Virus record (IMG/VR): IMGVR_UViG_3300028840_007197
Span: 30,907-94,906 of that record
Origin: a virus
Reading direction: 5' to 3' (one strand)
DNA: 64,000 nucleotides
In this document: positions 9,129 through 63,132 of the stretch, piece by piece
Layout of the letters: each line of letters begins with the position of its first letter
How positions within the stretch are numbered: the first letter of the stretch is position 1
Made by a program: the position numbers and the translations under genes
The notes under the pieces: model-generated
The model's input: only the letters and a program-made list of their open reading frames with translations
Databases searched by the model: none
What the model was told of the DNA's origin: nothing

Positions 9129-10040
9129 TTAGCCCTTGAAATGGGGCTTAAACCTCACCTGCATGGCATCAAAACCGTCAGATTCGGAGGAGGGCTGACC
9201 TTTTTGCCATCTTTGGAGAATATTAAAACCGCCGCTGTATCCCGTGTCTGATTTATGGCCCGTCTGAGATTCCTGAAACTTCTTCATTATATCGAAACCA
9301 CCAGAAAAGGGCTCAGAGAGGCTTCGTTCCTTAGCCATACGGACTATCTGTCGGTAGCGGAAAACACTATCATCCATAGCCCATTGATGCCCGTTAGAGC
9401 ATATCATACCATAATAAACACTCGACCACTTTGAGGCTATCTTCGATTTATCACAGCCACAGACAGGGCATCGTGTATCCGGAAGGGGTTCCCCTGCTAT
9501 AGAGGCGTACATCGTTCGACCCTGTTTTTCAGTCTCTTCAGCGGGAACACCTTTTTTTCCGACCATCTTTCCAAAAGGATTTTTCATCTGGCCCTTTTTC
9601 GAGACCACGACATAGAAATCTTTATCGAATATCTGCTTGAACTTCTCACTGGAATATGTGTTCCCTAGGTCAGATTTATAGGTGTTCCGATAGATTGTGG
9701 GTGCCTTGTGGCCAGGTGTAAGGTCAGGACGGTCACCGGTCTTAAACAGTTTTGGGAGGAACCTGTGGACGTCCTCAGGTATAATATCGATGTCTTTATC
9801 CTTGTACAGAACCCCCTCAGAATCTGATACCACCACCATCTCGGGTTCCTGTATCAAGCCATCAGAGCTCAAGTGGGCATTATAGGCGTAATACTCTTCT
9901 TCCCCCTTTTTTTTGAAGAGGATACCATACTCTACCCACTGAAAATTACCCTGACCTAACTCCTCGGTATTCAGTGTCTTATGGTCAGGATTGGCCCAGA
10001 AAGATATGGATACCTTAACGGGATCGTATTTCTCAGCCAC
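9129..10040 (-). CDS. Hypothetical protein with a CPVC...C-x3-H putative Zn site
   Basis: 303-aa ORF; GTG start overlaps the stop of the upstream gene; CPVCG...ICSNGHQW. Confidence 0.7.
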   Translation of the reverse strand: MAEKYDPVKVSISFWANPDHKTLNTEELGQGNFQWVEYGILFKKKGEEEYYAYNAHLSSDGLIQEPEMVVVSDSEGVLYKDKDIDIIPEDVHRFLPKLFKTGDRPDLTPGHKAPTIYRNTYKSDLGNTYSSEKFKQIFDKDFYVVVSKKGQMKNPFGKMVGKKGVPAEETEKQGRTMYASIAGEPLPDTRCPVCGCDKSKIASKWSSVYYGMICSNGHQWAMDDSVFRYRQIVRMAKERSLSEPFSGGFDIMKKFQESQTGHKSDTGYSGGFNILQRWQKGQPSSESDGFDAMQVRFKPHFKG

Positions 10041-13000
10041 TAGGACAGTCTCCTCATAGTTATAGGAATTCCAGGGAGCTCGAAAATATCTACAACATCG
10101 TTATTAGACCTGTGATCAAAATAATTGTGGAGAGAGGTGTTATCCACCTCGCTACCGGCAACCATCAGATACAGGCGTCCATCATTGTCCTTATCCAGAA
10201 TATACGATTGGAACGTCTTCTGATACTGGCCAGAGGAGTCAAGCTTCTCATATTTCAGGCCGAGGTTACCGCGACCCAGAGGTGCATCAGGAATATGAAT
10301 AGTAGACCGACCCCGGTCTGCAACATTCTGTCCAAGGATAACCGTATTCGCCGTCGTATCAGAAATATCCTGGACTCTATTCACGATGCGGGTCTCCAGA
10401 ACAGGATACTTGTCGGTAACAGCCGTAGATATTTCTTCATTCATCCCACTGGCATCAGCGGCGCTGTTGAGTGCCGGAAGCCTATCCAGAATATTAGCGG
10501 GTGAGAAGAACGGCTGGTCCTTAGCAACGATAGTATAAGCTGCATAAACAGTGGAATCTTTAGGTTTTTGCGAGAGAAACAGGGTACTATCATCATATAC
10601 TTCACTGATAACATATTCAGTCTCAGAATCCGAATTAAGCTTAATCAGATACCCACTCTTAACATTAGAAGCCCACTCAGTGTTTTGACCAAGGACTGAA
10701 GTGGTATCCTCGTCGAAAAGAGCCAGACCCTGAGCATAGGTATAATCGGTGATAGTACCGCTACCAGACGTGGTTACCAGAGCCGGTCCTATGGCCTCTA
10801 TACGACCGGTAACTGTAGAATCGAGCCAGCCCTGATAGGGCGTAGTCTCATAGAAGCAGGTATATCCTTCAGAATCACTTATAGCGCTTTTTCTTAATAC
10901 AGGGACTGATATGGCATTCCCTGCTGATGGCGCTGATGAGAACTCTATGACGAGCTCTGTTTTATGTGATGCATCAGAAAGTTTAAGATTATTGGTAACG
11001 AGGGGTTCTCTTGCTGACCCATTATAAGCGTAGCATGTACCATTCTCATTACTGTAGCTCGCTATTGCAATGAATCGCCCCGTGGTATCAACTTTAAACA
11101 CAGTACGGCCACTACCAGCGGGCTCACGGGGTGTCAGCTCAATCATCTCGTAAGTTTCAGTAATTGCTCTGCCCTGTTTATTTGTTTCAAAGAACTTAGT
11201 TCCGAGATACAAATCGAATTCAACATGCTGACTTGAGGAAGCTGTCGTATCAAGGGCCACGTTATACTGACTCGCAGTTCTGGTAATAGTACCAAGACTC
11301 CTTGTTGTTGAGTCTATCTTGGCGTCAGCTATCCCGAGCACACTATAGTCCTCAATGGACCGAGGAATGATATAGTTAGTAGACCCTGACCCCGGTACAT
11401 GATAAGTCATCCTATGGCCAAAATCATACAGCTCATCAAATCTTGCTCCTCTGTTCGAGAGCGTATTGAAATGAGTTGTATCACCAATAATAACGGGGGC
11501 AGCCGTTCTTACACGGATGTCACTATCCACAGAAGCTATAGGAGTTGTAGAGTCCTCTTTTCTGAACTCTAGAATCCTATTCGGAACATGAGTCAGCCCG
11601 TTTGGCCCTGCAGGCATACTAATCGTATACTCAACAGTAATGGGCAACGATGTTCCAATAATTGTTCCTGAGTTTATTGTAAATATGACGTCATCTGCGG
11701 GTAGTGCAGTATAAGAAATATTACCGGTCAGGCTCCCATGACTTGAGGTATATATAGCATCAACAGACGTTACCTGAGAACCTTCAGGGTAAGAGTCGGA
11801 GGGTAAATCTATCTCGAACTGATTCGTAGCAGCCCAGGCTGCTCCAGGAGTTCCCGTAATCTTGTCATTGACTGTTTTAGCTATAAGAGAGTCGGGCTGT
11901 GTGATTTCTGCATTGGAGAATATTCTGCGGACTCCATCACCCTCAGCAATCTTAGTTGACCCGACTTTATCTACGTTGCTCACTGCATCCGCTTGAACAA
12001 GGACCTTTCCATAATGGTCCTCACCAAGGGTAGACTTACCCATTTTTGTCTGAAGCTTACCGCTGATGAGCTTTTTAAACCCATCCTCACACAGCTCCTT
12101 ATAGTTATCCTGAACGGATACCCTACGACGAAGATCCAGAATGTCACTGGCCACAATCCAGTCATTATAGAGATTATCAGGCCTATCTGAAGCGTATCCT
12201 TCCAAATAATTCGCCAGGGTCTTTGCGGATCCGTTAGAACGGGTTTCAGGATTATAAATGCCCGTATTACGACGATGAATAGCAAACATAGGTATGGCAT
12301 AGGTATATCCATCTGCCGTCCCCAAGGTTTCCTGAGCAGCTGCATCACCGGAACCGGCTCTCCACAGACCAATATCTCCAGGAACTGGAGAGAAATAAGC
12401 CTGGACGCAGGTACTGAGAGGAGAGCTGAGGGGCCCTTGAACAAAAACCCTATTCGGATCAAAGCCGTCGGGGTAAGTTTCCAGGTCCGTATAAGCGACT
12501 CGAATCCTATACTGTATCTGTACTCTTAAAGAGGTCTCAATATTGATAGCTGGGTCGATAAGGTCATTGGACGGATTGATACCACCATAGAGAATATTGC
12601 CGTACTTATATACGGTATCTGAGGGCTCTAGTACCTTTTTCCATACCTCAAGGAATACGAAATCTATTCTTGAACCGATAGTAGGAGGTTCATCGAGAAT
12701 AATAACGTTATTCTCATCTGTTGAATTTGTCCCCTGAACTAGAATTCTCCAGCCGTTAACCCATGCCACAAGGGCCTGTGTCTCGACACCCTTATCGAGG
12801 GCTATGAGCTTGAATGTATTATGAACATACCCTGATGAAGAGAGTGTATCGCCAGCCCGGCATTGAGACTCTGTTACGCCCCCCTTTATCGAGCCGACAA
12901 GAGACCAGCCGCTCGGATTCAAGAAACGACTCATCAATCGGTCGTTCTCAGCAGAGACCATCCCGGTTAGATTGAGCTCTGAGGAGAGGGGCGGTTTTCT

Positions 13001-13081
13001 CTTCTGATAAACCACCTGCTCAAAACCACGGTTTGTCGGGTCCAGAACTCTGGTCTGGTTGGGACCTAGATAATCTGACAT
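10040..13081 (-). CDS. Putative tail fibre/baseplate-attached protein (paralogue of 19266-23279)
   Basis: Shares KPPL.SELNL, VFLEVW, IET..RVQ.QYRIRV, DGY.YAIPMF and DILD.RR with 19266-23279; beta-rich; AGGAG RBS favours ATG at 13081. Confidence 0.7.
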   Translation of the reverse strand: MSDYLGPNQTRVLDPTNRGFEQVVYQKRKPPLSSELNLTGMVSAENDRLMSRFLNPSGWSLVGSIKGGVTESQCRAGDTLSSSGYVHNTFKLIALDKGVETQALVAWVNGWRILVQGTNSTDENNVIILDEPPTIGSRIDFVFLEVWKKVLEPSDTVYKYGNILYGGINPSNDLIDPAINIETSLRVQIQYRIRVAYTDLETYPDGFDPNRVFVQGPLSSPLSTCVQAYFSPVPGDIGLWRAGSGDAAAQETLGTADGYTYAIPMFAIHRRNTGIYNPETRSNGSAKTLANYLEGYASDRPDNLYNDWIVASDILDLRRRVSVQDNYKELCEDGFKKLISGKLQTKMGKSTLGEDHYGKVLVQADAVSNVDKVGSTKIAEGDGVRRIFSNAEITQPDSLIAKTVNDKITGTPGAAWAATNQFEIDLPSDSYPEGSQVTSVDAIYTSSHGSLTGNISYTALPADDVIFTINSGTIIGTSLPITVEYTISMPAGPNGLTHVPNRILEFRKEDSTTPIASVDSDIRVRTAAPVIIGDTTHFNTLSNRGARFDELYDFGHRMTYHVPGSGSTNYIIPRSIEDYSVLGIADAKIDSTTRSLGTITRTASQYNVALDTTASSSQHVEFDLYLGTKFFETNKQGRAITETYEMIELTPREPAGSGRTVFKVDTTGRFIAIASYSNENGTCYAYNGSAREPLVTNNLKLSDASHKTELVIEFSSAPSAGNAISVPVLRKSAISDSEGYTCFYETTPYQGWLDSTVTGRIEAIGPALVTTSGSGTITDYTYAQGLALFDEDTTSVLGQNTEWASNVKSGYLIKLNSDSETEYVISEVYDDSTLFLSQKPKDSTVYAAYTIVAKDQPFFSPANILDRLPALNSAADASGMNEEISTAVTDKYPVLETRIVNRVQDISDTTANTVILGQNVADRGRSTIHIPDAPLGRGNLGLKYEKLDSSGQYQKTFQSYILDKDNDGRLYLMVAGSEVDNTSLHNYFDHRSNNDVVDIFELPGIPITMRRLS

Positions 13082-14043
13082 TTCGGATCTCCTATTGTTC
13101 TCACTTTCCACACAATCAGCGGCTCAATAACGTGCGGCTCAATGCGCGAACAGAGCATCAAATTTTTTATCAGTGTCTCGTAAGCATAGGTAAAATCGTA
13201 AAAAACGCTCGAATTAAAAAACCACGTTGTTGGGAAACCCGTACACTTCCTGAACATCCTGTCTATATCATAAAGTGGGTAAAGTTTAACAGAAAGGTCA
13301 GATAGTGCTGTTTTAATTTTATTATAGTCTTTAATGAATTCAGTAGGAACAGAGGAAGCTACTTCCTCAGGAAATATCTTAGGGTCCTTAATGATCTTTG
13401 CAATATGTCTGACCTTCTGAGGGACCCGCTCTAAAGACCCCTCCATATCTTCGATCGTATCAGCTGACCGGTCTAGGTCCGCTATTATTGATGATAGTAT
13501 AGACTTTATAGTCTTACTTCCACACATGGTATCAGGAAACACAGTTCTCAAGAGGCTACTCGACAGCGAACAAACTTCGTCCGTATTAGCTGAAAACGAC
13601 CTCATCAATTTATCATAATCGCTAAGGGTCGTCATGAATTCAGACTTCTTAGACCCGTTTACCTCTCTAGGAGTGTTCTCAGTCTGCTCGTCGGGCTTCA
13701 ATTCCAGCATCAATATTTCGACATCTTTATGGTTATCCCTGATAACCTTAAGAATTTCATCTACGGCACTATCTGAAGCTAGATGAGCATTAACCCCTTT
13801 GTTCTTCTTGGTCAGATTCCCTAGAATATGACTTATTACTGGCACTGCCCTGATGTATTCCTTATTGGTCATTGGACCGGCCAAAATTATTCCATTGAGA
13901 GAAGCAAATAGATATCTTCCCTCTTTCGTGACCGACAAAGAGTTCTTACCTACCTTAAAATCAGCGAGGAGCTTACCTTTTTTAGCAAACATCCCGGCCA
14001 TTTTTATATCATTCTTCGGATATTCCTTTGACACGCTCGTCAT
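13066..14043 (-). CDS. Hypothetical protein
   Basis: 325-aa ORF overlapping both neighbours in operon fashion. Confidence 0.65.
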   Translation of the reverse strand: MTSVSKEYPKNDIKMAGMFAKKGKLLADFKVGKNSLSVTKEGRYLFASLNGIILAGPMTNKEYIRAVPVISHILGNLTKKNKGVNAHLASDSAVDEILKVIRDNHKDVEILMLELKPDEQTENTPREVNGSKKSEFMTTLSDYDKLMRSFSANTDEVCSLSSSLLRTVFPDTMCGSKTIKSILSSIIADLDRSADTIEDMEGSLERVPQKVRHIAKIIKDPKIFPEEVASSVPTEFIKDYNKIKTALSDLSVKLYPLYDIDRMFRKCTGFPTTWFFNSSVFYDFTYAYETLIKNLMLCSRIEPHVIEPLIVWKVRTIGDPKCQII

Positions 14044-15355: not shown

Positions 15356-18300
15356 CTATAAAGGCATCATTTCCGTGACCTTTAGGACACGGTAACTCCT
15401 ATCCGGGAGCAACTCCTTAAATGTCTTTTTCCGGTAACGAACTACTTCATCATTCATGAATGAGTAATCTACCATGTACTTCAGAGGGTCCTTAGAATGA
15501 GAAGAGTTTAGAACCTTTACCAGAGCATTAGGGAACGTATCAGGTGAACTCAATTCATCTTGAGATGCTTCATAAGTCTCGAAAACAGGGCCAGAGAATA
15601 TATGCTCCTCAATCTGATAAGTCGTCTTATTGAAATAGACTATCTTTGTTCCCAACCCATAATCATCAAGATTATTCACGTACTCATTATACTGAGCATC
15701 GATTCTAATCTTAATTGGGTCCGGACAAGCAGATGCAAAGACATAGTCATCGTCCAATATTCTTGAATAATAAGGGTCTATCAGTTCTATTGTGGTGGTA
15801 TTAATGACTTTATAACTAAAAGTTACAGGGGGACTAATCTCATATATGAGCTCTATCTCATCCCCGGCATTAAGAAGTCCGTTTAGACTACTACCTCTCC
15901 AGATTAATTCGTTTCCATACACATAGAAATCATAACCATCCTGCTGAGAGGTTCCATTCACAATATTAAGAACTACATTTGTTTTCCTTCTCAGGTAATT
16001 TGAGAGGAAAACACCCCCGTTATCAGCCTGCTCCTGAGTCAGTATTATATGCTCAAAAACCAGATAAGATGGCATGTTCAACTGAATGACACCATTTACG
16101 GGATCAATCGATGAAATAATGCCCTCTAAGACCGTACCGCCTATTTTTACCACCACATCACCGGCATCTGCATAGGTGGTCTCATTTTTCATGAGCGGAA
16201 GAGTCGGAAAATCAATTATCCCCTGGTCTGAGGACATTTTCATAGTAGCTGGCAGATAATATGTCGGAGTATCCGTCTCAAGTTCAGATGCAGCCTCATA
16301 GGAAATGAGAGCCAGACCAGTACTCTCTGTTTCTCTTAGGATGAAATTATCCCTGAGCTTCTTTGAGGGCACTCTAAGATTAGGCGATCCAATTAATGAA
16401 CCTGGAATGGATGCGGTTACCTCATCATATTTAACAGTATCTGTAACTAGCCACGGGTCGCATTCTTTGAGCTTGGGAATATCTTCCTGATATCTAAACT
16501 GGAAAATCGGTGTCGCTGAATCACATAGGGAACTTAAATGGACACTCTCTCCATTATCCCTGAATTCCTTCAGAAGCAGGTCCGAATAGAGAAGAGGATG
16601 ACGATGCTGCCTGATATCCTGAAGTTTTCTCTGATATACGAGTCCCGGTTGATACGCGAAAGTCTTCTGGAATGGAGGCGTACCTTCTCTTAGCTTCAGG
16701 ACAGGATCCAGGCCATTATCCAGGTATTGGTCATCCAGAACGATGTTAGAACTAGTATCGTACAGAAACTCTGGGCTGAAGAAAAGATTAAGATGATTAA
16801 GAGAATCCTGTTGATTCGCTATAGAAGCCCTTGTAGCAGGCTTCTGATAATTATTGAGCCTGAGAGTATCGGGAGAGTTCAGAACGGACGTATGATGCAG
16901 GAGATATGTCCTGAACCGATATCCTATCTCAACCGGATTAGCTCTTGGTATGGACGCTGTACCTGAGGAATCATTTAGGGCATCATCAAGTAGGAAATTC
17001 TCGTAATCAAGATACCTTTCAATATCATCGAGAAGTGCAGGATACTGATAGTTCAAACCGGCATAATAACCAAATTCGAGACTATCACCTATGGCAGGAA
17101 CTCTACCCAGTTCGGAATCTACCCAGAATTGAGTAGTGTCATAAAGGGTTATATGACCAAAGAGGGGCCTTATTGACCTTACCGCATCTATGACCTGAGT
17201 ACCATCGACATAGATGCTTACATCAGATGTTCCTGCGAGAGTTCCGGACCCATCACCCGTGACCAAAGGCGTATGGGACATCTGCCAATGGGCTAATCCG
17301 AAGAGCAAATCTGTTGAAGAGCTATAGACCGTACCATCGGATAAATAGTTATAATCGAATCCAATTTCATCACAGATAGCGGGAGAATGACCTACTGTTG
17401 AGTCCCAGTATGTTGTGCTATCAGTCAGAGTAACGTTAGCATTACTAGCATCTACAGAAATAACGGAGTCACTAAGAGAGGTACCGTCAAAATTAACGAG
17501 TACATCAGAGATTGTTGCAGGATTACCAGAACTATCCGTAAGGGGAGCATGCGGCAGAGTTAATACATAACTATCCCCGTACCAGAAGGAGTCAAAGACT
17601 TCATCTCTTCCCCATGGAAGGCTTAACCTAGGTGAATCTAATCTCTGACCTATTTGGAAGGAAGTAGATGTAGTCTTTTCGCTGGTAGCATCACAATCCT
17701 TACGAAGGTCCTCATAATAAGGCTGTAAAAGGTCCTGCACCCATCTATCACAGATGGTAGTAGGGGTAGTTTTTATTTGAAGGGGGAATCGCCCATTCGG
17801 GTCCATCACCTTCTTCACGAACTCCTGGAAGGCCGGTTTCCTTATAGTATCGAGATAGAACCTGGAAACCGATGAAGGCAGGACCCCAGGAGGCATATAC
17901 CAGAACTGAAAATCGCCAGGAATCTGAATCCAGGATATCCTAACCCACTGACCAATCCTGAGTTGATCGAACCTTATTCTTTTTCCGAGGGAATTAAATA
18001 TTACAGTCCCATTTACACCTGGCTCTGTAATGACCCTCGTCCCATCAGTGAGAAACAGGGTCAGATAGTCATTATGGAGAGAATCAATCCTCCCCGTGGC
18101 CCCCTGTGAAGTAGTAAGTACTGATATTTGTCTTGCCAGATATGTTGGTTCACCTAAAGGGCTGTAATCGTATACAGGTACACATCCACCACCAGTATCA
18201 CCATAAATGAGGTCGTGTATTTTATTAACATCTATCTGCTCGGTCCAAATAAGCCTGGTATCATAAAGGACGTGAGCAGGCCTGATTAGATTTATAAAGA

Positions 18301-18883
18301 AATCAAGATTAGTAAGGATATCATTGATATTCTTACCTGAATTAAGGAGGTCGTCGACAAAAACGTCAACGACCATTTTATTAGTATCTATCACTGAATA
18401 AGCACTATTAGGCTTTCGTGCCTCAAGATAAAGCTCACGTATATTTATATCAATACCCGTGAACTTTTCAGCAGTGCTTTCGATATTATCTTTTTTACTT
18501 CCAATGAGATAGGCGTCTTTCAGAGATATCAGATAATCCCTGAAAGACTCATCATTGTAGTTTTGTGGTGCGATCTGTTCTTTAAGAAATAGACGGTCAC
18601 CAAGTATCTGCTGGAGATATTCTATACGAGTCTGGGTATAAACCTTATCATTATTTATTGCATCATTGCTATAATGCATCCTTGCAAATTCACGGGCAAG
18701 GACATTAAAAAGTATGGATACATTAGTATTGGTATCTTTCGGATAGTTACTTGGAAGGAGACCTATAAGCGCGGTTAGGATCTCAGAAGCCCGACCATAG
18801 AGGTCTGCCCTGTAAGACTGATTGTCCGGAAAGCGCTTTCTGCCCAGTTCTTCCGGATCAGGAATATAGGGTCCTATAGCCAC
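15356..18883 (-). CDS. Baseplate wedge protein (P2 gpI/Mu gp48-like N-terminus) with appended beta-modules
   Basis: LLPSNYP...DESFRDYL...GSKKDNIE...INIRE...FFINLIRPAHV pattern; position downstream of the baseplate J-like gene. Confidence 0.65.
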   Translation of the reverse strand: MAIGPYIPDPEELGRKRFPDNQSYRADLYGRASEILTALIGLLPSNYPKDTNTNVSILFNVLAREFARMHYSNDAINNDKVYTQTRIEYLQQILGDRLFLKEQIAPQNYNDESFRDYLISLKDAYLIGSKKDNIESTAEKFTGIDINIRELYLEARKPNSAYSVIDTNKMVVDVFVDDLLNSGKNINDILTNLDFFINLIRPAHVLYDTRLIWTEQIDVNKIHDLIYGDTGGGCVPVYDYSPLGEPTYLARQISVLTTSQGATGRIDSLHNDYLTLFLTDGTRVITEPGVNGTVIFNSLGKRIRFDQLRIGQWVRISWIQIPGDFQFWYMPPGVLPSSVSRFYLDTIRKPAFQEFVKKVMDPNGRFPLQIKTTPTTICDRWVQDLLQPYYEDLRKDCDATSEKTTSTSFQIGQRLDSPRLSLPWGRDEVFDSFWYGDSYVLTLPHAPLTDSSGNPATISDVLVNFDGTSLSDSVISVDASNANVTLTDSTTYWDSTVGHSPAICDEIGFDYNYLSDGTVYSSSTDLLFGLAHWQMSHTPLVTGDGSGTLAGTSDVSIYVDGTQVIDAVRSIRPLFGHITLYDTTQFWVDSELGRVPAIGDSLEFGYYAGLNYQYPALLDDIERYLDYENFLLDDALNDSSGTASIPRANPVEIGYRFRTYLLHHTSVLNSPDTLRLNNYQKPATRASIANQQDSLNHLNLFFSPEFLYDTSSNIVLDDQYLDNGLDPVLKLREGTPPFQKTFAYQPGLVYQRKLQDIRQHRHPLLYSDLLLKEFRDNGESVHLSSLCDSATPIFQFRYQEDIPKLKECDPWLVTDTVKYDEVTASIPGSLIGSPNLRVPSKKLRDNFILRETESTGLALISYEAASELETDTPTYYLPATMKMSSDQGIIDFPTLPLMKNETTYADAGDVVVKIGGTVLEGIISSIDPVNGVIQLNMPSYLVFEHIILTQEQADNGGVFLSNYLRRKTNVVLNIVNGTSQQDGYDFYVYGNELIWRGSSLNGLLNAGDEIELIYEISPPVTFSYKVINTTTIELIDPYYSRILDDDYVFASACPDPIKIRIDAQYNEYVNNLDDYGLGTKIVYFNKTTYQIEEHIFSGPVFETYEASQDELSSPDTFPNALVKVLNSSHSKDPLKYMVDYSFMNDEVVRYRKKTFKELLPDRSYRVLKVTEMMPL

Positions 18884-18891: not shown

Positions 18892-19272
18892 CTATTTAGA
18901 AGGGCTCATTGAGATCAGGTTTATTCCAGTTGCGTCTGGCGTATAGAACGTGAACAATCCTAGTTCATGCACGGGAGAGTAAGGATTTGTTGAATCAGTT
19001 GGAAACGTCGGATAATCAAGCTCTCTTACCGAACTTGCCGTAGCTGATGTTACGGCGGTTGCATCAGCAGCTCCATTGAAATTCTGCAGAAACAACATAG
19101 AGTACTGATATTTGCTGGAGTCTCCAGAAAAATCAGTCATCTGGGAGAACTGTATCTGACCGCCATTATACGGTATAAGCGTATTACCCAACCGCGCCAG
19201 ACCAGGCATGATGGATACAGTAGAATCAGATACTTCAAGCTGAAACTGTATATGATCTGATGTGGTCAGCAT
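18892..19272 (-). CDS. Small virion-associated hypothetical protein
   Basis: 126 aa, beta-rich, overlaps the upstream fibre gene. Confidence 0.6.
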   Translation of the reverse strand: MLTTSDHIQFQLEVSDSTVSIMPGLARLGNTLIPYNGGQIQFSQMTDFSGDSSKYQYSMLFLQNFNGAADATAVTSATASSVRELDYPTFPTDSTNPYSPVHELGLFTFYTPDATGINLISMSPSK

Positions 19273-22200
19273 AGTGTAATCCTGCTTAAGGGTTTATTCT
19301 GAATACGATACACCGCTAGGGCATCGGTCGAGCCCACTTGATACCCTACGGAATTATTCTTTTCAGTGATATATGTACGTGAGAAAATAACCATTAGATA
19401 TTCGCCGTTTTTGAAGATGTTATTGTTCTCATCACAGACTCTGGCAAGGACGGGCATATAAACTTTCCTAGGAACAGACAGCCCCATGCCCTCAGTAGAG
19501 AACTCGAATTCCCTTGAACAGATGCTATAGAATGTTCTTCCTAGGCTATCTACTGAGGGAGCCGAAAGAGTAAAAGATTCTCCAAAACTTCCGGGCACAT
19601 ACACGGGGAGAGAGACCATGCCCGTATCCACCGAGAGGTTATTAAAGCGTAGGGACTCATTGTTATATAGAAGATTTTCTTCCAACAAAATATCATTGAT
19701 AGGAATCTGCTCTATTGGTGTCGTGTAGGGTTGACCAGCCACCCCACCTGTAGAGCCATTGTTCGATACGTATATCCTGTCCCCACCATCAACAGTTGTG
19801 AGGGTAACAGTCGTAGGAAGAGATTGGACAGTTTGATAGGGAAGGAAATTATATGCTATCAGAAGAGCATCATTATTTGAATCGATCGGATAGGGTAGGA
19901 TAAGGTCTTGAACAAGAACCTGTATCCAGACTGTTCCGGGTGATGTCGCCGGATAAGTAACCGTGATGGTATCAGTACCAAAACCAGTTACGGTACATTG
20001 GGTCATTACGGCGTTACTTATATCTGACCCTATCCAGCAAACAGGACTATTCAAGGACTGCGTTGTTTCAACACTCGAAATTCCAAGAATAACCTTGTTA
20101 GGCATGTTTATTTGTGCTGATGTAGTAGAAACAGTAGTATCATCTTTAAAGATAGAACTGCAGAAAGTATTTATGCCCTTTGTGGAGGCAACAAAATTTA
20201 CCGATGCTCCGTTTCTGACGTTTATAACTATATCCTTGGTTACATAAGTAATTATTTCTATAGACTGGCCCTCAAGGAAAGAGAACCCGGTAGCCGGTGT
20301 TATCTTTATACCTGTCACATCAGAGCCGGATGTCGTAAACGATACTGAGCTTATTTTGTATGAGAACGATGAAATAACATTATTAATCTTAGACACAGTT
20401 AGGATATTGTATTTGGTGTCATCAGTATAGGGGCCTATTTCAGGGCTTAGAACAAGAGCAGTCCCATCCAAATCAGAGCTTGTTATTTTCATGAAATAAT
20501 GAAGCTCTACATTAGACGCTCTCGACTGCTGAGCTGTATCAGTATAAGCTTTTGCTGGATACACCAAAGCATAGTTGTTATACCCTGAAACTTCAGAGGC
20601 CCAGGACTCTATGACTCTCGATGTCTCTGAGCTCAGGACACCCTGATAGTAATAGGGAGCAGACCCTGACCCACTCACATTTTTTACCAGTTTCGGTGAA
20701 GACGGTATGTAACTCAGAGACACCGAACTCCCCGCCACATATTTTCCAGATAACAGATATCCGTTTACCGGTGAATCCGTTTTCACATCACTATCAAAAA
20801 CAAATGTAACCGTATCTGTTCCAAGACCTTCCCAGTATCCCGGAACAGGTTTCCCACTATATGAGGCATCCCCACTTACATAAGTGGCAGAATAATGGAC
20901 GGGATTGGTAGAGAAAATACCTGTAACAGGACCTAAAGACTGCTGAGTAGGTACCGGACTCGTTGAAAGAGATATTGACGATGTATTGAAAGATGCCTCG
21001 GAAGTAATAAGACCTGAAACGGCCCCCGTGAGGTCCGTATTTAACTCAGTACCACCCTCAGAACCAGAACCCGAAACTCTGTCTATATGCAGCAATTCGG
21101 TTCCATACCGGTCGCCACCATCAGATAGGCGTCCCATAACCGTTTTGAGTTCATTTTTCGACATCTTGTCGAAGGTTGAACTCAGGAGCTCTTTTGTAGA
21201 AGGAATAGTTATTATTCTTCTAACATCGAGGATATCCGAATCGACGACCTCTGTAGCAGTGAGAAGGTCGGGCCTGATAAAAGAAGTGTTCCTTTGGTTA
21301 GAGCCATTAGGATTAGTTGAGGCGTTATAGATCCCTGAATTTCTTCTGGCTACAAAAAACATGGGTATAGCATAACAGTACCCATCAACAGTATTTTCGC
21401 ATTTAGCTCTCCAGAGTCCGTAGTCACCATTTATCGGACCCATATTCTCGTAGGAGAATTTTGCCGTCGTATTCGGGCCCAAACCATATACCGTTGAGGA
21501 TAATCCCGCCTCAGGATTAAAATTGGGATCTGCCCCGCTTATTACTCTAATTCTGTACTGAACCTGTACCCTTTTTGTGGTCTCAATACGAGCATCAGGA
21601 TGTATAGAATTATCTTCTAGGAATACATCACTCTCGACATTCCCCTCGTAAAAAACCCTTTGAACCTGACGGATGAAGGTTTCAGTTTGCTGTTCCTCCC
21701 ATGTGATACCACTATCTTCGGTGTTCCGTATTACTGAATTAGCACCAACAAGCCAACCTTTATACTGGTCGAAGAAAGAAATGCCATATATGTCATATGC
21801 TGTTTGTGGGTCCTGAGGAACCCATTTAGCCCCTATATCATCGGTATAAAGTACTCGGCCTGAATCACCAACCGCCCATGCTTTTCCATTGAAGACGGCG
21901 CAGTCTCTCTTATACCAGTATGAAATTTTAACCGTATCATTTACCTTCGGAGCTAATGCAAGTACCACCGCTCCCGTTGTACCATTAATGCTATCAACAG
22001 CCACCTGGACATTATTTACCGTAACCGTTACCATACTCGGGTCATTGGTAACAGTTCCCCTTCCGTCTCCAACAGTTATAGGGGTATTCGCAACCGTGAA
22101 ATTCTTATTAGTTCCATCAAGCTGTGAGCTGACTTCCTCATTTAATACATGGGCATCAAGAGTAGGAGCCATTGAGACGGATCTGAGATTATCAGTAATG

Positions 22201-23279
22201 GAAGTATAAGTCGAATTTATGTATACATTACCGGACTGTGACACCCATGAAGCGCCACCATCTGAGGTCCTCAGAATAGTTCCATTATCTCCAACAGCAA
22301 ACCCATAACTGAGGTCATACATATGGATGCCATTGAGATTCTGGGTCGTATTACTAACCTGTGCAACCCAATGGTCACCACCATCAGTGGTCCTTATAAT
22401 TGTCCCTGAGTCTCCAACAGCCCACCCAACCTGATTATCATAAAAAAAGACCTTATTGAGATTAGCAGTAACCCCGCTAGTCTTCTCTACCCATGATACG
22501 CCGTTGCTGGTTTTTACGATAGTACCGGCATTACCAACGGCCCATGCCAGAAGCTGGCTGTAGGCGCATATTGAATTAAGATCTTCAGACACAACACTTG
22601 TAAGAGTGGTCCATTTCTGACCTCCAGAAGAGGACCGTGCAATGAAACCATCCTCCCCGACAACCCACCCTATGGATGCAGTAATAAAGTATATGCCTTT
22701 AAGTACTTTAGTAGTATCGATGAGCTGCGTTGACCATACCTGACCAGCATTCTCCGTTTTTAAAACGAGCCCGTTCTGACCACAAACCCACCCTATTGAG
22801 TCACTGTACATGTAGATGTCATAGAGCGAATCAATCACCGTGGCCGGATCAGGTTTGTTTGTACTCGTATCAGGATCAAGAAGAGCTCTCCAAACTTCAA
22901 GGAACACCCCATTAAGAATATTACCGCTCGATGGAGGAGTTTTGAGATCGATAAGATTAAGATTAGTGGCAGTCGTACCGGTATTGGTAACATGAACCAC
23001 CATCCCATTAACGTTGGCTATTTCAGGCTTTGGGTTAGTTGTACTCTGGGTATAGAATTTATTGGCCAAGGACCTATCCGTGTGGATAGGATACATTGAT
23101 ATCCACCCGGAGGGAAGAAATGATGCCTGTCTCCTATTGATGATTCCTTGAAGCTGTTGAACAAGATTCAGCTCGGAATCAAGAGGGGGCTTGCCCTTCT
23201 GGAAGACCACCGTATCATAGTTGTAGCCCTGGTCCTCATAAACGTAGGAGACATCAGGTCCCAAATTATCATGAGACAT
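19266..23279 (-). CDS. Putative tail fibre/receptor-binding protein with YCF48/BNR beta-propeller insertion
   Basis: Repeated GWAVG..GTI.RT.DGG..W blades (about 21690-22830) inside a scaffold paralogous to 10040-13081. Confidence 0.8.
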   Translation of the reverse strand: MSHDNLGPDVSYVYEDQGYNYDTVVFQKGKPPLDSELNLVQQLQGIINRRQASFLPSGWISMYPIHTDRSLANKFYTQSTTNPKPEIANVNGMVVHVTNTGTTATNLNLIDLKTPPSSGNILNGVFLEVWRALLDPDTSTNKPDPATVIDSLYDIYMYSDSIGWVCGQNGLVLKTENAGQVWSTQLIDTTKVLKGIYFITASIGWVVGEDGFIARSSSGGQKWTTLTSVVSEDLNSICAYSQLLAWAVGNAGTIVKTSNGVSWVEKTSGVTANLNKVFFYDNQVGWAVGDSGTIIRTTDGGDHWVAQVSNTTQNLNGIHMYDLSYGFAVGDNGTILRTSDGGASWVSQSGNVYINSTYTSITDNLRSVSMAPTLDAHVLNEEVSSQLDGTNKNFTVANTPITVGDGRGTVTNDPSMVTVTVNNVQVAVDSINGTTGAVVLALAPKVNDTVKISYWYKRDCAVFNGKAWAVGDSGRVLYTDDIGAKWVPQDPQTAYDIYGISFFDQYKGWLVGANSVIRNTEDSGITWEEQQTETFIRQVQRVFYEGNVESDVFLEDNSIHPDARIETTKRVQVQYRIRVISGADPNFNPEAGLSSTVYGLGPNTTAKFSYENMGPINGDYGLWRAKCENTVDGYCYAIPMFFVARRNSGIYNASTNPNGSNQRNTSFIRPDLLTATEVVDSDILDVRRIITIPSTKELLSSTFDKMSKNELKTVMGRLSDGGDRYGTELLHIDRVSGSGSEGGTELNTDLTGAVSGLITSEASFNTSSISLSTSPVPTQQSLGPVTGIFSTNPVHYSATYVSGDASYSGKPVPGYWEGLGTDTVTFVFDSDVKTDSPVNGYLLSGKYVAGSSVSLSYIPSSPKLVKNVSGSGSAPYYYQGVLSSETSRVIESWASEVSGYNNYALVYPAKAYTDTAQQSRASNVELHYFMKITSSDLDGTALVLSPEIGPYTDDTKYNILTVSKINNVISSFSYKISSVSFTTSGSDVTGIKITPATGFSFLEGQSIEIITYVTKDIVINVRNGASVNFVASTKGINTFCSSIFKDDTTVSTTSAQINMPNKVILGISSVETTQSLNSPVCWIGSDISNAVMTQCTVTGFGTDTITVTYPATSPGTVWIQVLVQDLILPYPIDSNNDALLIAYNFLPYQTVQSLPTTVTLTTVDGGDRIYVSNNGSTGGVAGQPYTTPIEQIPINDILLEENLLYNNESLRFNNLSVDTGMVSLPVYVPGSFGESFTLSAPSVDSLGRTFYSICSREFEFSTEGMGLSVPRKVYMPVLARVCDENNNIFKNGEYLMVIFSRTYITEKNNSVGYQVGSTDALAVYRIQNKPLSRITLC

Positions 23280-56020: not shown

Positions 56021-56021
56021 A

Positions 56022-57480: not shown

Positions 57481-57490
57481 AGTATCCTCC

Positions 57491-58861
57491 CTACCACGTA
57501 ATGTTTTCAAAGGTGACTGTACGACCCCGTATAATCCTTGGCTCTGGTATCTCAGGCTTCGCGTTTATAACAGGACTGGCTGGAGACTTCAAAGCCTCTC
57601 TGTAAACATCGGATGAAGCAGGAACAGAAGTCTCACCACCCGTAATCGACAGTTTATATCTGATATCCTTCTCATCGATATGACTGATGGTGAAATGCTG
57701 CTGGTATATAGCTCCACGAGACCCCTGATAGTTTACCGGTCCGACAATATACCGCTCATTGTTCTGACGAACTATGACATCCCTCTCATTAAGAAGAGGA
57801 TAATCAGATGTCCATGTAAGCCAGTCATATCTTATATGAAGGCCCATGTCCGATAATTCTATAGACCGCTCAGTTTCTGGAGGAGCTATGACAATATCAT
57901 AAGGACCATCAAATCCGCCCTTATAATTAGTCCCCATACAATTTGGACAATCATGGTGACTCTGACCATACTGATACTCATAGGAGTCACATGTCTCACC
58001 CATCCACTTCCTTATAAACACCTTGACCCGCTCGCCACCCTGTTCAAGCATCCACCTGTTCCTGTTTATAGCCTCTCTCCAAATCCAATCCACCTCCTCA
58101 ATATCAAAAGTGCTTCTTGCAGACACCTCATCAAGAGGAGTCTCTATATAAGACCCCGGATTCGAGGGGTCATGAGCTACGGTCGTTACTTTATAGTATA
58201 TCCTTTGATTTAGAGCGGATACGACAGCATGTTTCAAATAACGATAAGACAATCGAATCTTACCATTTGGGGGCTTTGGTAACCGAGGGGGTATAGTTTG
58301 CTCCAGGGTATGATTATAGGTGAAACCACTTATAAGAGTTATTTCACCTGTCCTGCCATTAAGGGCGAATGCCGGTACCTGAAGCCACTGACCGTCCCCA
58401 TCATCTATCTCTACTAAAACATCTTGAGACCTGAACGAGCTATCGCCGTTTGATCCAGGCTTTACCACTGGTTTATATCTGGTCCAAACCACCCATTTAT
58501 TATCAGGTTCTTCATAGAACTTCAGCGTTGGAGTTGCATCTTCCCTCTCAACCAGATACTCCTGAGTCTGATCCCTGAAAAACAGTGCGGTCACTATGGT
58601 ATCATTGATCTTTTCGTAGGGCCCATAAGGGTTATCTGTTGACCTGTAGACATTCACTCCAGCGATGCATAAACCGTTATTCTCAGGAATAAGAGTAGGA
58701 TTATCCCAACGTATATCAGCAATCCCTATCAAATAGGGACTGGTCACCATAAGGTTCCGGGGAGCCATAGGAAGCGTAAGGTCCGGAGTCTGAGGACGCA
58801 GGGGATAATTATAATCCGGCCTCTGAGTCTGACTCAACCGACCAGAATGATAGACGGGCAT
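57491..58861 (-). CDS. Putative neck/head-closure protein with FN3-like N-terminus
   Basis: APRNLMV...IRWD...GVNVYRS FN3-like pattern; GERVKVFIRKW.G..C...CPNC.GT..GGF and WT..YP.L..RDVIV...RYIV closure-like pattern. Confidence 0.55.
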   Translation of the reverse strand: MPVYHSGRLSQTQRPDYNYPLRPQTPDLTLPMAPRNLMVTSPYLIGIADIRWDNPTLIPENNGLCIAGVNVYRSTDNPYGPYEKINDTIVTALFFRDQTQEYLVEREDATPTLKFYEEPDNKWVVWTRYKPVVKPGSNGDSSFRSQDVLVEIDDGDGQWLQVPAFALNGRTGEITLISGFTYNHTLEQTIPPRLPKPPNGKIRLSYRYLKHAVVSALNQRIYYKVTTVAHDPSNPGSYIETPLDEVSARSTFDIEEVDWIWREAINRNRWMLEQGGERVKVFIRKWMGETCDSYEYQYGQSHHDCPNCMGTNYKGGFDGPYDIVIAPPETERSIELSDMGLHIRYDWLTWTSDYPLLNERDVIVRQNNERYIVGPVNYQGSRGAIYQQHFTISHIDEKDIRYKLSITGGETSVPASSDVYREALKSPASPVINAKPEIPEPRIIRGRTVTFENITW

Positions 58862-61800
58862 TACGGTGTCCCCTCTTTATACAGTATCAGCGGTTTCCTC
58901 TGAGTCATAATCTTATGTGACCTGGACTGACTAGTACCTTCAATACTATCCGCTATCATTGAATAATTAAAAGCATACCCCTTACCGACCTTACACCCAT
59001 GAGTCTCACCTGACGTGGCCTGGTTCATGTAGAATGCAGCTGACCAGGTCCCGTCCGTCGTGAAACTTCTCTTGTTTATCGTGTACCACGAATCGAAGTT
59101 ATAAGCCTTAACCTCAAACATTCCATTGGTTAAGCTCATCCTAAACCTTACAGGATCGGAGAGTCCAAGGCCTCTGTATATTACTCTCATCACATCCCCT
59201 ACCCCCACTTCACCATCCATTGCATAACCATCCCAGACAATCTTCTCTCCCAGTACCGTATAATCTACACCAAACTCCTGAGCTACACCTCCAATCGCAT
59301 TCAAAACAACGGTGCAGTCTTCTGCCATCATGCTCAGATGGGTATACTTGTGGCGCACATCATCCGAATCAATGCATATATACTCTGTGAGATACTGGTT
59401 CCTCGTAATCTCATTGACTGGAAGCACATAAGTACAGTTATAGTTCTTGCCATCCAAAAGGATACCACCGGAACAAGTACCATCATTATAACTGATAGTT
59501 GCGGTATTATCAGCATTTGTGATATTAAAAAATACGGGGTCTATTGCATTTCTGAAATCGACCTCAATACTGAAATCCCCAGAGAAAGTGAAAGTCGAGT
59601 CAGCTCTGGCCTCATTAATCCCATCATAGGTCATCTCAAGGAAACCACTGCCCGTCTCCACTGTGGAGTCCCCAGAATATGTCATATCCCATAACCCAGC
59701 ATCATACTCTACATGGTTCCAGGCTCTGAAATCCCTGGGAATGAAATAATCTTCCAGTATATACCTTCCAGTCGGAACCGATGTCCGGTCCTCGACCGGT
59801 ATGAGAACCTTACCACTGCTGCCGTCGAACATAGGATAGGCACCAGAAAGAACCACAATGTTCGAGGAAGTATCCTGAAGAGCTCTGGATATCGTATGGT
59901 AAGGATGATCCAGTGTTCCGTTACCCCACCCATACGTGCCATCACCGGTAATTTCTGTACCATCACTGCCACTCTCTGAAACGAACACGGCACTCCCGAA
60001 GTTGATGTCACTATAATGGGAATGCAGAGTAATGGTATCAAGAGGGCTCTTGTTGAGGTTACAGATAACCCTAAGAGTATCACCCTCGGAGAGGATACCA
60101 TCCATCCCGAGACCATCCCAGAGTACGGTGTACTTAGCCACCGTGAAATCAGTGCCTAAATATTGAGCAGGTCCATCCACTGGGTTTACGGCTATATCTG
60201 AATAATCTACCCCGAAGAAATCGGGTATTCCTACTGATTTCCGGGTCATATCACTATCGGTAAGTTTTATATATGATACGAAAGCCTCTCTAAAAGAGTC
60301 GTATACATAAAATCTGTTAAGCTCTACCGTCTGATCAGTAAGACCTAGATAGTATGAGTCGTAATGGCCACCATCAATAGAAATTGTTGAATCGGCCACC
60401 GACATGGCCTTATCCAATGTTCTGAAGGGATCTTGCTGACCCCCAAAGTTCACATAGTCATCACCAGCGCTAGAGACATACCATGTACCGCTATGAGAAC
60501 CTTCAATATATTCATGAGCTCCAATATCTATGGAACCAAGACTAGCACGGTTTTTACGGTCTATATCAAGATAGTACCGGTCGTAGTCTCCAGTGCCAGC
60601 TCCGATATCGGGTGACCCGGAGGTCAACGAGTAGTCTCTACCCGCCTCGTTAGCATAAAGAGGGTCAGATGTGATATTAGCTGCGTCTACATCAGGGGTT
60701 CCAACGGGGTAAACAGTTACTGTCCCGTAGAAATTATTATTCAGAGAATAAACAGGGGAAGAATCATTGGATATTACCAGGCCATAGGTGCTATTGGTAA
60801 TATTGTTGGAGGCTACAACGCCAGAAGAGCTGCTATCAAGAATAATACCCCCGATGTTATCATCAAGAGTATTGGAAGATATTTCAATACTGCTCGTATC
60901 AAGGCACCTGATAGCTTCAGACGTGTCGTATATAACTGTACTATATACATAAGGATTAAACGATGAAGAAAAATCAACACCTATCTGTACGCCATGGATA
61001 ACAGTACTTCTTATAACCTGGTCGGAGTCGGTTCCCAAGAACTTAATACCTGTCGTTGCATCTCTGATTATACACTCAAAAACTTCTACATTTCTAGTAT
61101 TATTCGCAAGTATGTCTGCTTCCGGGGCACTTAGGGTCAGATTATGTATGCGTGCCTGGCAAGACTCGAAGGAGAGAGCGTTTTTCTCCCACCCTGACCC
61201 AGTAGTATCCTGAACATTATCTGAAGAAATAAGGGGGCGGCAACCGTTTGCTCCCCTAATGGTAAGATCTTTTCCAATTATTTCGGAAGGATTATGGGTA
61301 CCATCATAAAGAACAATGGTCCCACCCCTCTTTGCCCATGCTGTTGCTACAAACAGATTCTGAAGAGGCGTTAGAACTCGACCATCATTCGAATCAGACC
61401 CATATGATGCATCAACGTATAATACGGGCTCTGAAGTTTCTATATCAAAGAGTATCCCATCAAAAACCTTGAAGGTGTCAAAGCCAAAAGATACCTCGTT
61501 ATCTGACGTATCTGTATAATACTCAGCCCGTACTATGTCCCCGCTTACAAGAATATTTTCTAGGGGGATCGATGTCCCATCACCAGATACAGAGCTCTGG
61601 TCCCATATAAGCCTTTCGTTCTGAACCACAAAATCGGAACCGATATACTGTGGGGTCCCCTGAATAACACTGAAAGATACAGAGCTCGAATCATTCGGTC
61701 TTGCTGAAAGTGTAATGTACTTATTGGCTATATCCTGATCGGTTAGTCTGAGTTGATCGATGAAAGGATCGGCCGATTCGAACTTATTAAGCCCTATCCT

Positions 61801-63132
61801 AATTTTGAAGCGCTTGTTGGAGAGACCAGGAACGAACTCGGTCAGAATGGTCTGTGGGGTGCTTGTAGCATCGTAATATTGGAATGAAAATGCCTCTTCA
61901 TCCTTATAGAGTCTCCACGTAACAGATGAATTATCAACAGTTACGGCAGTCTGACTCTTTATGCCATCTACAGAGAATACTCCAAACGTGTTACCGTGTT
62001 TCCTTGAAAGCCCTACCCAGTTTGATGCATCACTATAAAGGAGGAAATAAGCATCATAGACACTAGCATCTGTCCCATATGGAATGTAGTCAATATCTGT
62101 GATGATACTCTTACCAGAAAGGCTGAACAGAGATTGTACAGACGGATTCCTGAAGTCTCCCTGAGAGGAATCAAAACGAACGAGATTGTTTAGGGTAACC
62201 GGTTCCTGAAGAGTCTCCCACCATTTTGTATTCCAGATAGTGCCCGTGAATTTTTCCTGAAAGAATGGCTCTATCTTCTTTTTAAAGATGATACCATCCT
62301 CAGCTCCTTCCACGCCATCTGCTGAAAGAGACCCACTGAATGTATATCCTTTTTCATACCACTGAGATATATACCCGCCAGCACCGCCACCACCATAAGC
62401 ATAATCTGTAGTACCACCATCAACAGAAATAGATCCAGTACCGTCTATATTCCAGGCTAGTATCCACACACTCCCGCCGGAACCTCCACCTGTCTCGACG
62501 GAAGCATCACCTGATTCTCCATTCATGGAAATGGTACCGTTTATGGTAACAGTACCACTTCTGGCTTCTAATTTTATCCCAGAGCCCCCTGAAGTAGCAT
62601 ATGAACCGCTTCCCAGCGATATTGGGGCCTCATAACTACCATAGGGCTCTTTTGGAGCTGGTACTATCTCGGAAGATGAACCCTCATAAATTACACGTAT
62701 CTGGTCTCCAACACCTATAAGGCCCTCAAGGGGTGTCCCGGCCCAGTTGAGAAGGTTCTCAAACACCACATAATAATCATCTGGATAGTACTGTGCAGAT
62801 GCTCCTAAAATATTCAGAGCAACATCAGTAGGATCATCAGGTAAACCACTAAGGCGTACATATCTGTTATCGATGTCATCCTGAGTAAGCGTAAACTCGT
62901 CTACTATAACTCCTGTGACTCCTGGGTCCGGAGTCTTATACCCCCTACCGGCATGGGTTGCCCCATAACCTTTGGTATAGTGACCGAGCTGATTAGTAAG
63001 GGTGCTATTAGCTCCGGGTCCCAGATTTGGACCAAATCCGTAGTCACTCCCATTTATGGATCCATCAATGAGGATATCACCGGAGACCGATTTTATAAGT
63101 CTGCTCTTACCGCTGGCAAATTTATAAGTCAC
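58861..63132 (-). CDS. Large accessory virion protein with DUF1565-like/right-handed beta-helix and repeated beta-modules
   Basis: YVDASYGSDSNDG...P, WYVSSAGDD...G...PFRTL.KA, FVSESGSD...GT...PYHTISRA; pectin-lyase-like NNITN repeats; Gly-rich GGGSGGSVWI segment. Confidence 0.75.
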   Translation of the reverse strand: MTYKFASGKSRLIKSVSGDILIDGSINGSDYGFGPNLGPGANSTLTNQLGHYTKGYGATHAGRGYKTPDPGVTGVIVDEFTLTQDDIDNRYVRLSGLPDDPTDVALNILGASAQYYPDDYYVVFENLLNWAGTPLEGLIGVGDQIRVIYEGSSSEIVPAPKEPYGSYEAPISLGSGSYATSGGSGIKLEARSGTVTINGTISMNGESGDASVETGGGSGGSVWILAWNIDGTGSISVDGGTTDYAYGGGGAGGYISQWYEKGYTFSGSLSADGVEGAEDGIIFKKKIEPFFQEKFTGTIWNTKWWETLQEPVTLNNLVRFDSSQGDFRNPSVQSLFSLSGKSIITDIDYIPYGTDASVYDAYFLLYSDASNWVGLSRKHGNTFGVFSVDGIKSQTAVTVDNSSVTWRLYKDEEAFSFQYYDATSTPQTILTEFVPGLSNKRFKIRIGLNKFESADPFIDQLRLTDQDIANKYITLSARPNDSSSVSFSVIQGTPQYIGSDFVVQNERLIWDQSSVSGDGTSIPLENILVSGDIVRAEYYTDTSDNEVSFGFDTFKVFDGILFDIETSEPVLYVDASYGSDSNDGRVLTPLQNLFVATAWAKRGGTIVLYDGTHNPSEIIGKDLTIRGANGCRPLISSDNVQDTTGSGWEKNALSFESCQARIHNLTLSAPEADILANNTRNVEVFECIIRDATTGIKFLGTDSDQVIRSTVIHGVQIGVDFSSSFNPYVYSTVIYDTSEAIRCLDTSSIEISSNTLDDNIGGIILDSSSSGVVASNNITNSTYGLVISNDSSPVYSLNNNFYGTVTVYPVGTPDVDAANITSDPLYANEAGRDYSLTSGSPDIGAGTGDYDRYYLDIDRKNRASLGSIDIGAHEYIEGSHSGTWYVSSAGDDYVNFGGQQDPFRTLDKAMSVADSTISIDGGHYDSYYLGLTDQTVELNRFYVYDSFREAFVSYIKLTDSDMTRKSVGIPDFFGVDYSDIAVNPVDGPAQYLGTDFTVAKYTVLWDGLGMDGILSEGDTLRVICNLNKSPLDTITLHSHYSDINFGSAVFVSESGSDGTEITGDGTYGWGNGTLDHPYHTISRALQDTSSNIVVLSGAYPMFDGSSGKVLIPVEDRTSVPTGRYILEDYFIPRDFRAWNHVEYDAGLWDMTYSGDSTVETGSGFLEMTYDGINEARADSTFTFSGDFSIEVDFRNAIDPVFFNITNADNTATISYNDGTCSGGILLDGKNYNCTYVLPVNEITRNQYLTEYICIDSDDVRHKYTHLSMMAEDCTVVLNAIGGVAQEFGVDYTVLGEKIVWDGYAMDGEVGVGDVMRVIYRGLGLSDPVRFRMSLTNGMFEVKAYNFDSWYTINKRSFTTDGTWSAAFYMNQATSGETHGCKVGKGYAFNYSMIADSIEGTSQSRSHKIMTQRKPLILYKEGTP

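Follow-up and report, generated by a model that had tools for sequence, protein, structure and literature searches.

To our knowledge, very few systems are known in which phage virions are glycosylated, and for tail proteins there is no description of a defined sequon. Here we analyzed a 64,000-nucleotide stretch of viral DNA (hereafter the window; bases 30907-94906 of the 94.9-kb IMG/VR fragment IMGVR_UViG_3300028840_007197, which represents ~20% of an uncultured huge myovirus genome) whose tail, baseplate and fiber proteins carry a large excess of the tripeptide D-[SATG]-[ST], that is, Asp, a small residue and then Ser or Thr. An earlier note on this DNA had singled out the tripeptide as a candidate glycosylation sequon. 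In mycobacteriophages, phage-encoded glycosyltransferases (GTs) have been proposed to decorate virion structural proteins in the cytoplasm, with glycans at the C-termini of capsid and tail-tube subunits (Freeman et al. 2023, as summarized in PMC12619734). Among bacterial systems, the autotransporter heptosyltransferases Aah and TibC (BAHT family) hyper-glycosylate Ser/Thr of the beta-rich adhesins AIDA-I, TibA and Ag43 in the cytoplasm. What they recognize is a strand-loop-strand element whose loop begins with the acceptor (PMC3835316, PMC4358343), and they do so without a sequence consensus (PMC3835316). The Bacteroidota sequon D-[ST]-[AILVMT(SCGF)] has its acceptor directly after Asp and a mostly aliphatic third position, and it requires export to the periplasm (PMC8550257).

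Compared with the mycobacteriophage system, the lineage studied here likewise encodes GTs of its own (GT2-242 and GT2-516), of which GT2-242 is conserved together with the trait and has no tblastn homolog in non-enriched relatives. Unlike the glycans described there, the candidate sites are internal tripeptides, numbering 5 to 32 per protein in five of six carriers, and they are spread over tail, baseplate and fiber proteins; a 228-aa (amino acid) protein at 47729-48415 has 1 site versus 1.05 expected. About half of the sites may have a strand-loop-strand geometry like that of BAHT targets, and one carrier is a beta-helix protein. At these sites our predicted models place Asp as the first post-strand residue, with Ser/Thr following two positions later. 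Unlike in the BAHT system, the sequence pattern is sharply defined, and the candidate enzyme is a GT2. The tripeptide resembles the Bacteroidota sequon in its length of three residues, with Asp first and Ser/Thr included, but its Ser/Thr comes third and its middle residue is small, Gly and Ala included. With the N-x-S/T sequon of oligosaccharyltransferase (OST) and of cytoplasmic HMW1C-type enzymes it shares a hydroxyl residue at +2, a preference for Thr over Ser and the potential to form an Asx-turn, but its first residue is Asp. Neither GT9/BAHT-type (PF01075) nor GT41 (PF13844) genes were found in the three clade fragments compared (G000, which contains the window; G001, 120.8 kb; and G002, 75.8 kb), which are 16-26% complete.

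Observed motif counts were compared with expectations from composition-preserving shuffles and expressed as z scores. Six virion proteins, all encoded on the minus strand that carries nearly all window genes, together hold 102 sites versus 34.1 expected (z = 12.5; shuffles within 20-, 40- and 100-residue windows). These are a 1781-aa fiber-like tail protein (30610..35955; 32 sites versus 10.8 expected, z = 6.8), a 1423-aa beta-helix protein with a NosD/Beta_helix region at residues 656-813 (58861..63132; 27 versus 7.9, z = 7.3), a 1175-aa baseplate wedge-like protein with a phrog_1160 N-terminal domain (15356..18883; 13 versus 4.0, z = 4.7), a 1023-aa tail fiber (10040..13111; 13 versus 4.4, z = 4.3), a 126-aa all-beta accessory protein (18892..19272; 5 versus 0.7, z = 5.5) and the 927-aa tail sheath (49553..52336; 12 versus 5.3, z = 3.1), in which the enrichment is marginal. 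Local-window and global shuffles give the same expectation for the six carriers (33-34), and a first-order Markov model expects 50, so the enrichment persists under the composition control that the earlier note had asked for. When exact tripeptides were ranked without bias in the six proteins, the top four were DGT, DST, DSS and DTT, and DGY, SGS, [ST]GS and [AP]SG showed no specific enrichment. Previous hand counts of 32, 27, 13 and 5 (1781-, 1423-, 1023- and 126-aa proteins), as well as those for proteins with few sites, were reproduced exactly; the remark that sites were also numerous in sheath and wedge proteins held for the wedge-like protein and only marginally for the sheath, whose G002 ortholog is not enriched (6 versus 4.5).

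Elsewhere in the window the motif occurs at or below expectation. PolA and DnaB have 0 sites each, SNF2 and the tape measure 1 each, and the remaining 28 virion-module proteins pooled have 27 versus 34 expected. A 1337-aa BNR-repeat tail protein (19266..23279, minus strand; 6 versus 5.6) serves as a neutral all-beta internal control. The motif is under-represented in the 1056-aa baseplate J / gp47-like wedge protein (23290..26460, minus strand; 3 versus 5.5), which bears out the reported patchiness, and a 500-aa virion-module protein with no family assigned (27245..28747, minus strand) belongs to the most motif-poor family. The external baseline comprised 152 proteins no shorter than 150 aa, drawn from phage G, Tunturi_5, LR745208 and the late region of T4. 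Pooled, these contain 167 sites versus 150.7 expected (1.11x), with no large protein above ~2x; T4 gp34 has 6 versus 4.6 and T4 gp37 has 5 versus 3.8. Profile searches against Pfam and PHROGs returned no family for most of the virion genes.

The sites are also unevenly placed within the carriers. All 13 sites of the 1023-aa fiber fall in its C-terminal, distal half, residues 520-1023 (2.8 expected), and residues 1-519, where none had been counted previously, have 0 versus 1.8 expected. In the 1175-aa protein, 13 of 13 sites lie within residues 251-720, leaving none in residues 1-250 or 721-1175, and the conserved C-terminal domain of the sheath holds none of its 12 sites. The sites thus avoid conserved anchor or core domains and cluster in distal or insertion parts. 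In the 126-aa protein, five of the eight Asp residues belong to motif sites.

Position-by-position enrichment in the pooled families (27 thousand amino acids, kaa) indicates that the original definition, D-[SATG]-[ST], was essentially right. At the first position Asp alone is enriched (3.08x), compared with 1.07x for Asn, 0.74x for Glu and 1.41x for Ser. The middle position of D-X-T favors Ala (4.4x), Gly (4.8x), Ser (3.9x), Thr (3.1x) and Cys (5.5x), with bulky or charged residues and Pro at ~1x or below, and the third position favors Thr (3.97x) and Ser (2.25x), every other residue being at most 1.4x. The reversed motif, D-big-[ST] and D-small-other were all flat. The variant D-[GA]-[ST] reached 260 versus 77.8 expected (3.34x), and D-[ST]-[AILVMCGF], the part of the Bacteroidota sequon that is not shared with the motif, 165 versus 233.8 (0.71x). 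N-glycosylation at N-x-S/T was ruled out, the sequon N-{P}-[ST] being flat at 426 versus 409 (1.04x), as was selection against deamidation-prone Asn-Gly, given that NG[ST] stands at 2.1x in the window and 1.37x pooled and hence is not depleted.

The window belongs to a large uncultured clade, delineated by ~96 clusters of the baseplate J / gp47-like family at 56-68% identity, with outgroup tiers at 37-42% and 28-34%. Some contigs of the clade are 470-590 kb, and the sources are mostly sediment-type metagenomes. Two syntenic relatives (G001 and G002, 45-65% identity) and 22 metagenome loci repeat the same gene-by-gene pattern, and 37 family members at 30-60% identity have 597 sites versus 181 expected. 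By family, the excess is 5.9x for the 126-aa protein (29 versus 4.9; seven orthologs at 30-45% identity), 3.34x for clade orthologs of the 1175-aa protein (38 versus 11.4) and 3.0x for the 1781-aa protein (148 versus 49.3; orthologs at 37-46% identity with 16-35 sites each). The 1423-aa family has 265 versus 73.6 pooled, with 23-32 sites in each of nine orthologs (40-50% identity), and orthologs of the 1023-aa fiber have 11 sites (z = 3.0) and 7 sites (z = 1.7). At least five largely non-homologous proteins of one virion share the excess. The BNR-repeat family remains neutral (54 versus 49.3, 1.09x), baseplate J among the syntenic relatives and loci is at 0.5x (40 versus 79.8), and 14 orthologs of the 500-aa protein have 4 sites versus 18.1 (0.22x); no outgroup homologs of this last protein were found.

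Outside the clade the excess largely disappears. The sheath is ~36% identical to its counterparts in the 485-kb uncultured phage LR745208.1 and in Tunturiibacter phage Tunturi_5, and the sheaths of these two distant relatives have 6 versus 5.5 sites and 8 versus 7.5 sites. The baseplate and fiber module of LR745208 is also at ~1x, as are the corresponding Tunturi_5 proteins; on the comparison with homologs that the earlier note had suggested, relatives in which neither of the two GT2 genes was detected by tblastn are thus not equally enriched. A relative with 37% identity in baseplate J has 9 sites versus 6.4 in its counterpart of the 1781-aa protein. For the 1175-aa protein, full-length homologs at 32-42% identity are pooled at 1.2x, versus 3.34x for clade members, and at columns occupied by DGT, DAS/DAT or DST in all clade members the distant homologs have NGV, NGA, DGL, DGV, DPI or DPW. 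The turn itself is thus conserved, whereas the preference for Asp at its first position and the presence of Ser/Thr two residues on arose within the clade. The trait belongs to the lineage and not to the fold, which we regard as the central result. Two divergent homologs of the 1175-aa protein are strongly enriched as well (P0012, 35% BLAST identity, 26 versus 6.0; P0034, 28%, 12 versus 4.4); since other homologs of comparable identity lack the enrichment, identity in this protein alone does not define where the trait ends.

When orthologs are compared in pairs, 48% keep D-small-S/T at the same columns. Retention is 14% for N-, 17% for S-, 16% for T-, 4% for E- and 7% for A-small-S/T, 27-29% for D-small-nonS/T and D-big-S/T, and 10% for the motif itself in the neutral 1337-aa family. 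By these alignment-based measures the motif is conserved, and selected, as a unit. Conservation is tightest in the 126-aa family, where sites are positionally conserved at 31-48% identity and T18, D70 and T72 are invariant. With its five conserved sites and confident predicted fold, the 126-aa protein is the best small candidate substrate and makes the question directly testable. The 1781-aa family shows turnover, with 85 site instances spread over 58 columns in three orthologs, and missing sites are replaced by other turn-like triplets.

The low counts in baseplate J extend to 96 clade sequences, which have 179 sites versus 429 expected (0.42x), including DA[ST] at 7 versus 86 and DS[ST] at 16 versus 111. 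The motif ratio in the outgroup tiers is 0.88x and 1.13x; N-small-S/T stands at 1.08x. In a calibration against all X-small-Z classes, D-small-T came out as no more than the 10th lowest of 211, since every class is over-dispersed among related sequences, and avoidance of the motif by baseplate J is therefore suggestive only.

AlphaFold2 (AF2) models were obtained for the 126-aa protein (predicted local distance difference test, pLDDT, 84), which was modeled as a confident all-beta module, and for a stretch of the 1781-aa protein, residues 1150-1781 (pLDDT 64; 70-90 in its beta domains). Of the 17 motif Asp residues in confidently modeled regions, 8 immediately follow the end of a beta-strand, compared to 1 of 23 other Asp residues and 8.4% of all residues, and six of these eight open a tight hairpin with the next strand within four residues. 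At the hairpin sites, the Ser/Thr two residues past Asp would sit at or beside the start of the returning strand. The remaining sites of these regions were modeled in longer loops, in a helix or, in the case of D70-A-T72, within a strand. Gly is kept in 79% of D-G-S/T sites, and D-[SAT]-S/T sites exchange their middle residue freely; the same motif frame thus accommodates at least two backbone classes. Flanking residues follow an alternating hydrophobic, strand-like pattern. With regard to the surface exposure anticipated by the earlier note, the models put most sites at strand-to-turn transitions and in loops, as predicted positions. The predicted fold of the 126-aa protein is weakly similar to the cyanophage A-1(L) tail fiber (8kec), SPP1 gp22 (2xc8) and the Mtd N-terminal domain, and a fold search with the 632-residue model from the 1781-aa protein returned nothing useful.

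The candidate enzyme is GT2-242, a 242-aa GT2 glycosyltransferase (147..875, minus strand; Pfam GT2 E-value 1.2e-9) encoded beside a sigma-factor-like gene and PolA. Its orthologs in G001 and G002 are 66-67% identical, and others lie on contigs of 512,380, 469,617, 589,645, 474,422 and 496,551 bp, among others, with sizes equal to those of contigs carrying the clade baseplate J, which marks it as a core gene of the clade. By tblastn, neither GT2-242 nor GT2-516 has a homolog in Tunturi_5 or LR745208, which are complete and non-enriched. The link between motif and GT2 raised by the earlier note thus stands as co-occurrence with a core gene of the clade, and this co-occurrence has a single origin. 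GT2-242 is a generic soluble enzyme of the GT-A type; its rhamnosyltransferase and MftF-like matches are sub-threshold, and it has no close relative of solved structure. A role in DNA hypermodification found no hydroxymethylase/kinase set among the conserved neighbors (ThyX, GH5, VWA and AAA+) in the ~20% of the genome that is visible. GT2-516 belongs to a GT-like gene cluster upstream of the window (G000:C1:11799-15399); it has 516 aa in two domains, an unassigned N-terminal domain of ~270 aa followed by GT2, and adjoins an AAA_33 kinase-like gene. It has ~60 ortholog clusters on other very large contigs (466, 398 and 246 kb), and these contigs do not match the baseplate J contigs in size.

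The pattern is best explained as a clade-specific tag under unit-wise selection in those regions of tail, baseplate and fiber proteins that are distal and face outward, in one lineage of huge myoviruses. Lineage-specific, multi-protein, unit-wise selection at exposed or distal positions is what a trans-acting reader would produce, and by analogy a phage glycosyltransferase acting on Ser/Thr would be the most economical candidate. We therefore favor, with a probability of roughly 45%, a clade-specific surface tag that is read by a modifying enzyme, the modification probably being O-glycosylation. A phage-encoded enzyme in the host cytoplasm would read Asp at -2 and the small residue at -1 and modify the Ser/Thr hydroxyl, for which O-glycosylation seems the most plausible chemistry. 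GT2-242 may start glycosylation, accessory GTs such as GT2-516 might extend it, and the outcome would be a glycan coat on the tail periphery. More tentative is the full proposal that the phage has its own cytoplasmic O-glycosylation system, with Asp-small-Ser/Thr on hairpin turns as its sequon, which coats the periphery of tail, baseplate and fibers, and that proteins with bare interfaces such as baseplate J avoid the sequon.

Several observations weigh against enzymatic reading of the tag. The excess behind the proposed sequon is real, conserved and specific to clade and protein, but the existence of a reader, its identity as a glycosyltransferase such as GT2-242 and the role of Ser/Thr as acceptor are inferred, and any modification of the site residues would be a deduction from the sequence pattern. 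GT2-242 adjoins sigma-factor and replication genes, outside the virion module, and its acceptor cannot be read from its sequence; its co-occurrence with the trait reflects one evolutionary origin and so counts as one data point only. Huge phages commonly carry GT2 genes, which usually serve DNA modification, cell-surface modification and the like. Avoidance in baseplate J is no more extreme than that of many unrelated tripeptide classes, and replication proteins show no clear avoidance. About half of the sites coincide exactly with the start of a hairpin, a position that structurally favors Asp and Ser/Thr, and the invariant D70-x-T72 of the 126-aa protein lies inside a strand in the model, with Leu or Met in the middle in most orthologs, and looks structural. 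The second AF2 model, that of residues 1150-1781, is of moderate confidence.

If the tag is modified, a widespread clade of huge phages from sediments, some of whose contigs reach 590 kb, would wrap its host-recognition machinery in a coat of its own making, with bearing on host range, resistance to proteases and adsorption traps, and longevity of the particle. It would also provide a compact pair of sequon and enzyme for glyco-engineering in the bacterial cytoplasm. If the motif is purely structural, it represents an unusually clean, lineage-specific way of building turns that was imposed at once on unrelated proteins, which would still need explaining.

Such a structural origin is the rival that survives best, and we regard it as quite possible, though at less than even odds. 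The motif would then be an unmodified, Asx-turn-like turn-capping device, adopted by the lineage as its favored hairpin closure in distal tail modules that evolve fast, and carried among tail proteins as modules were duplicated and shuffled. In Asx-turns, Asp at the first turn residue together with a nearby Ser/Thr stabilizes the hairpin; such motifs follow the fold, and Asn can take the place of Asp. The Asp-box of BNR repeats provides a precedent for a conserved hairpin motif with both D and T. Like these motifs, most sites in confident model regions appear at strand ends, turns and loops, and the concentration of motif Asp directly after strands, often opening a tight hairpin, is what a capping device would give. 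The strand-like flanks, the turn-like triplets that replace missing sites, the retention of Gly in D-G-S/T, the invariant D70-[L/M]-T72 in a strand of the 126-aa protein and the sharing of some mosaic modules among tail proteins point the same way. However, distant homologs of the same fold do without the motif, and Asn, the other classical Asx-turn former, is not interchangeable with Asp (1.07x versus 3.08x). Beta-branched Thr and Ala in the middle position are as enriched as Gly, predicted geometries are mixed, and fibers of T4, phage G and other relatives are at ~1.1x. The all-beta 1337-aa protein of the same virion, which has BNR repeats as in the Asp-box precedent, is neutral. The caution in the earlier note that such tripeptides are common in beta-turns thus accounts for the half of the sites that open a hairpin but leaves clade specificity and the preference for Asp over Asn unexplained.

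An alternative reader is improbable but would fit clade-specific, unit-wise selection equally well, this selection being silent on chemistry. Candidates include a kinase with a preference for Asp at -2, an acyl- or ADP-ribosyltransferase, a phage assembly or decoration factor, and cations or host-surface ligands held by numerous weak Asp/Thr turn sites, and the placement of GTs outside the virion module would suit any of them. Among the annotated conserved genes in the visible ~20% of the genome, though, there is no kinase or other candidate enzyme, and flanking residues show no extended metal-binding pattern around the sites.

A general O-glycosylation system of the Bacteroidota type, supplied by the host and acting on D-[ST]-[AILVMT...], is very improbable. 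Tailed-phage virions assemble in the cytoplasm, whereas that system needs periplasmic export. The neighboring gene, which adjoins that of the 1423-aa protein, encodes a 257-aa protein with a Fib_succ_major (FISUMP) domain (63129..63902, minus strand), and this domain is typical of the FCB group. DST, DTT, DSS and DTS do fit the broadened motif (PMC8550257), but the non-shared part of that motif is not enriched and D-[GA]-[ST], which falls outside it, is, so that the Bacteroidota sequon cited in the earlier note is excluded by its motif.

A statistical or compositional artefact arising from Ser/Thr/Asp-rich patches, repeats or a DNA word is hardly credible, as the carriers are Ser/Thr-rich (19-25%) but local shuffles and the Markov control leave the excess standing, dozens of orthologs replicate it and control proteins are at 1.11x. 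Local composition patches were ruled out by the local-window shuffles and a DNA-level word by the diversity of site codons. A single repeated motif-bearing domain was likewise ruled out: the six carriers share just a few small mosaic modules, and the module common to the 1175- and 1423-aa proteins carries no sites in the former.

A module of ~100 aa occurs four times in the 1423-aa protein (residues 75-152, 459-517, 978-1075 and 1222-1336) and once in the 1175-aa protein (residues 915-1073). In P0140, an ortholog of the 1423-aa protein, the N-terminus matches the C-terminus of the 257-aa FISUMP protein, which suggests domain exchange. Upstream of the window, G000:C1:20373-30380 encodes an N-terminally extended ThyX, a cellulase-like GH5 protein of 450 aa, a VWA protein (459 aa) and an AAA+ protein (533 aa). 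G001 and G002 both keep the VWA/AAA+ pair, which lies immediately upstream of the genes for GT2 and the sigma factor.

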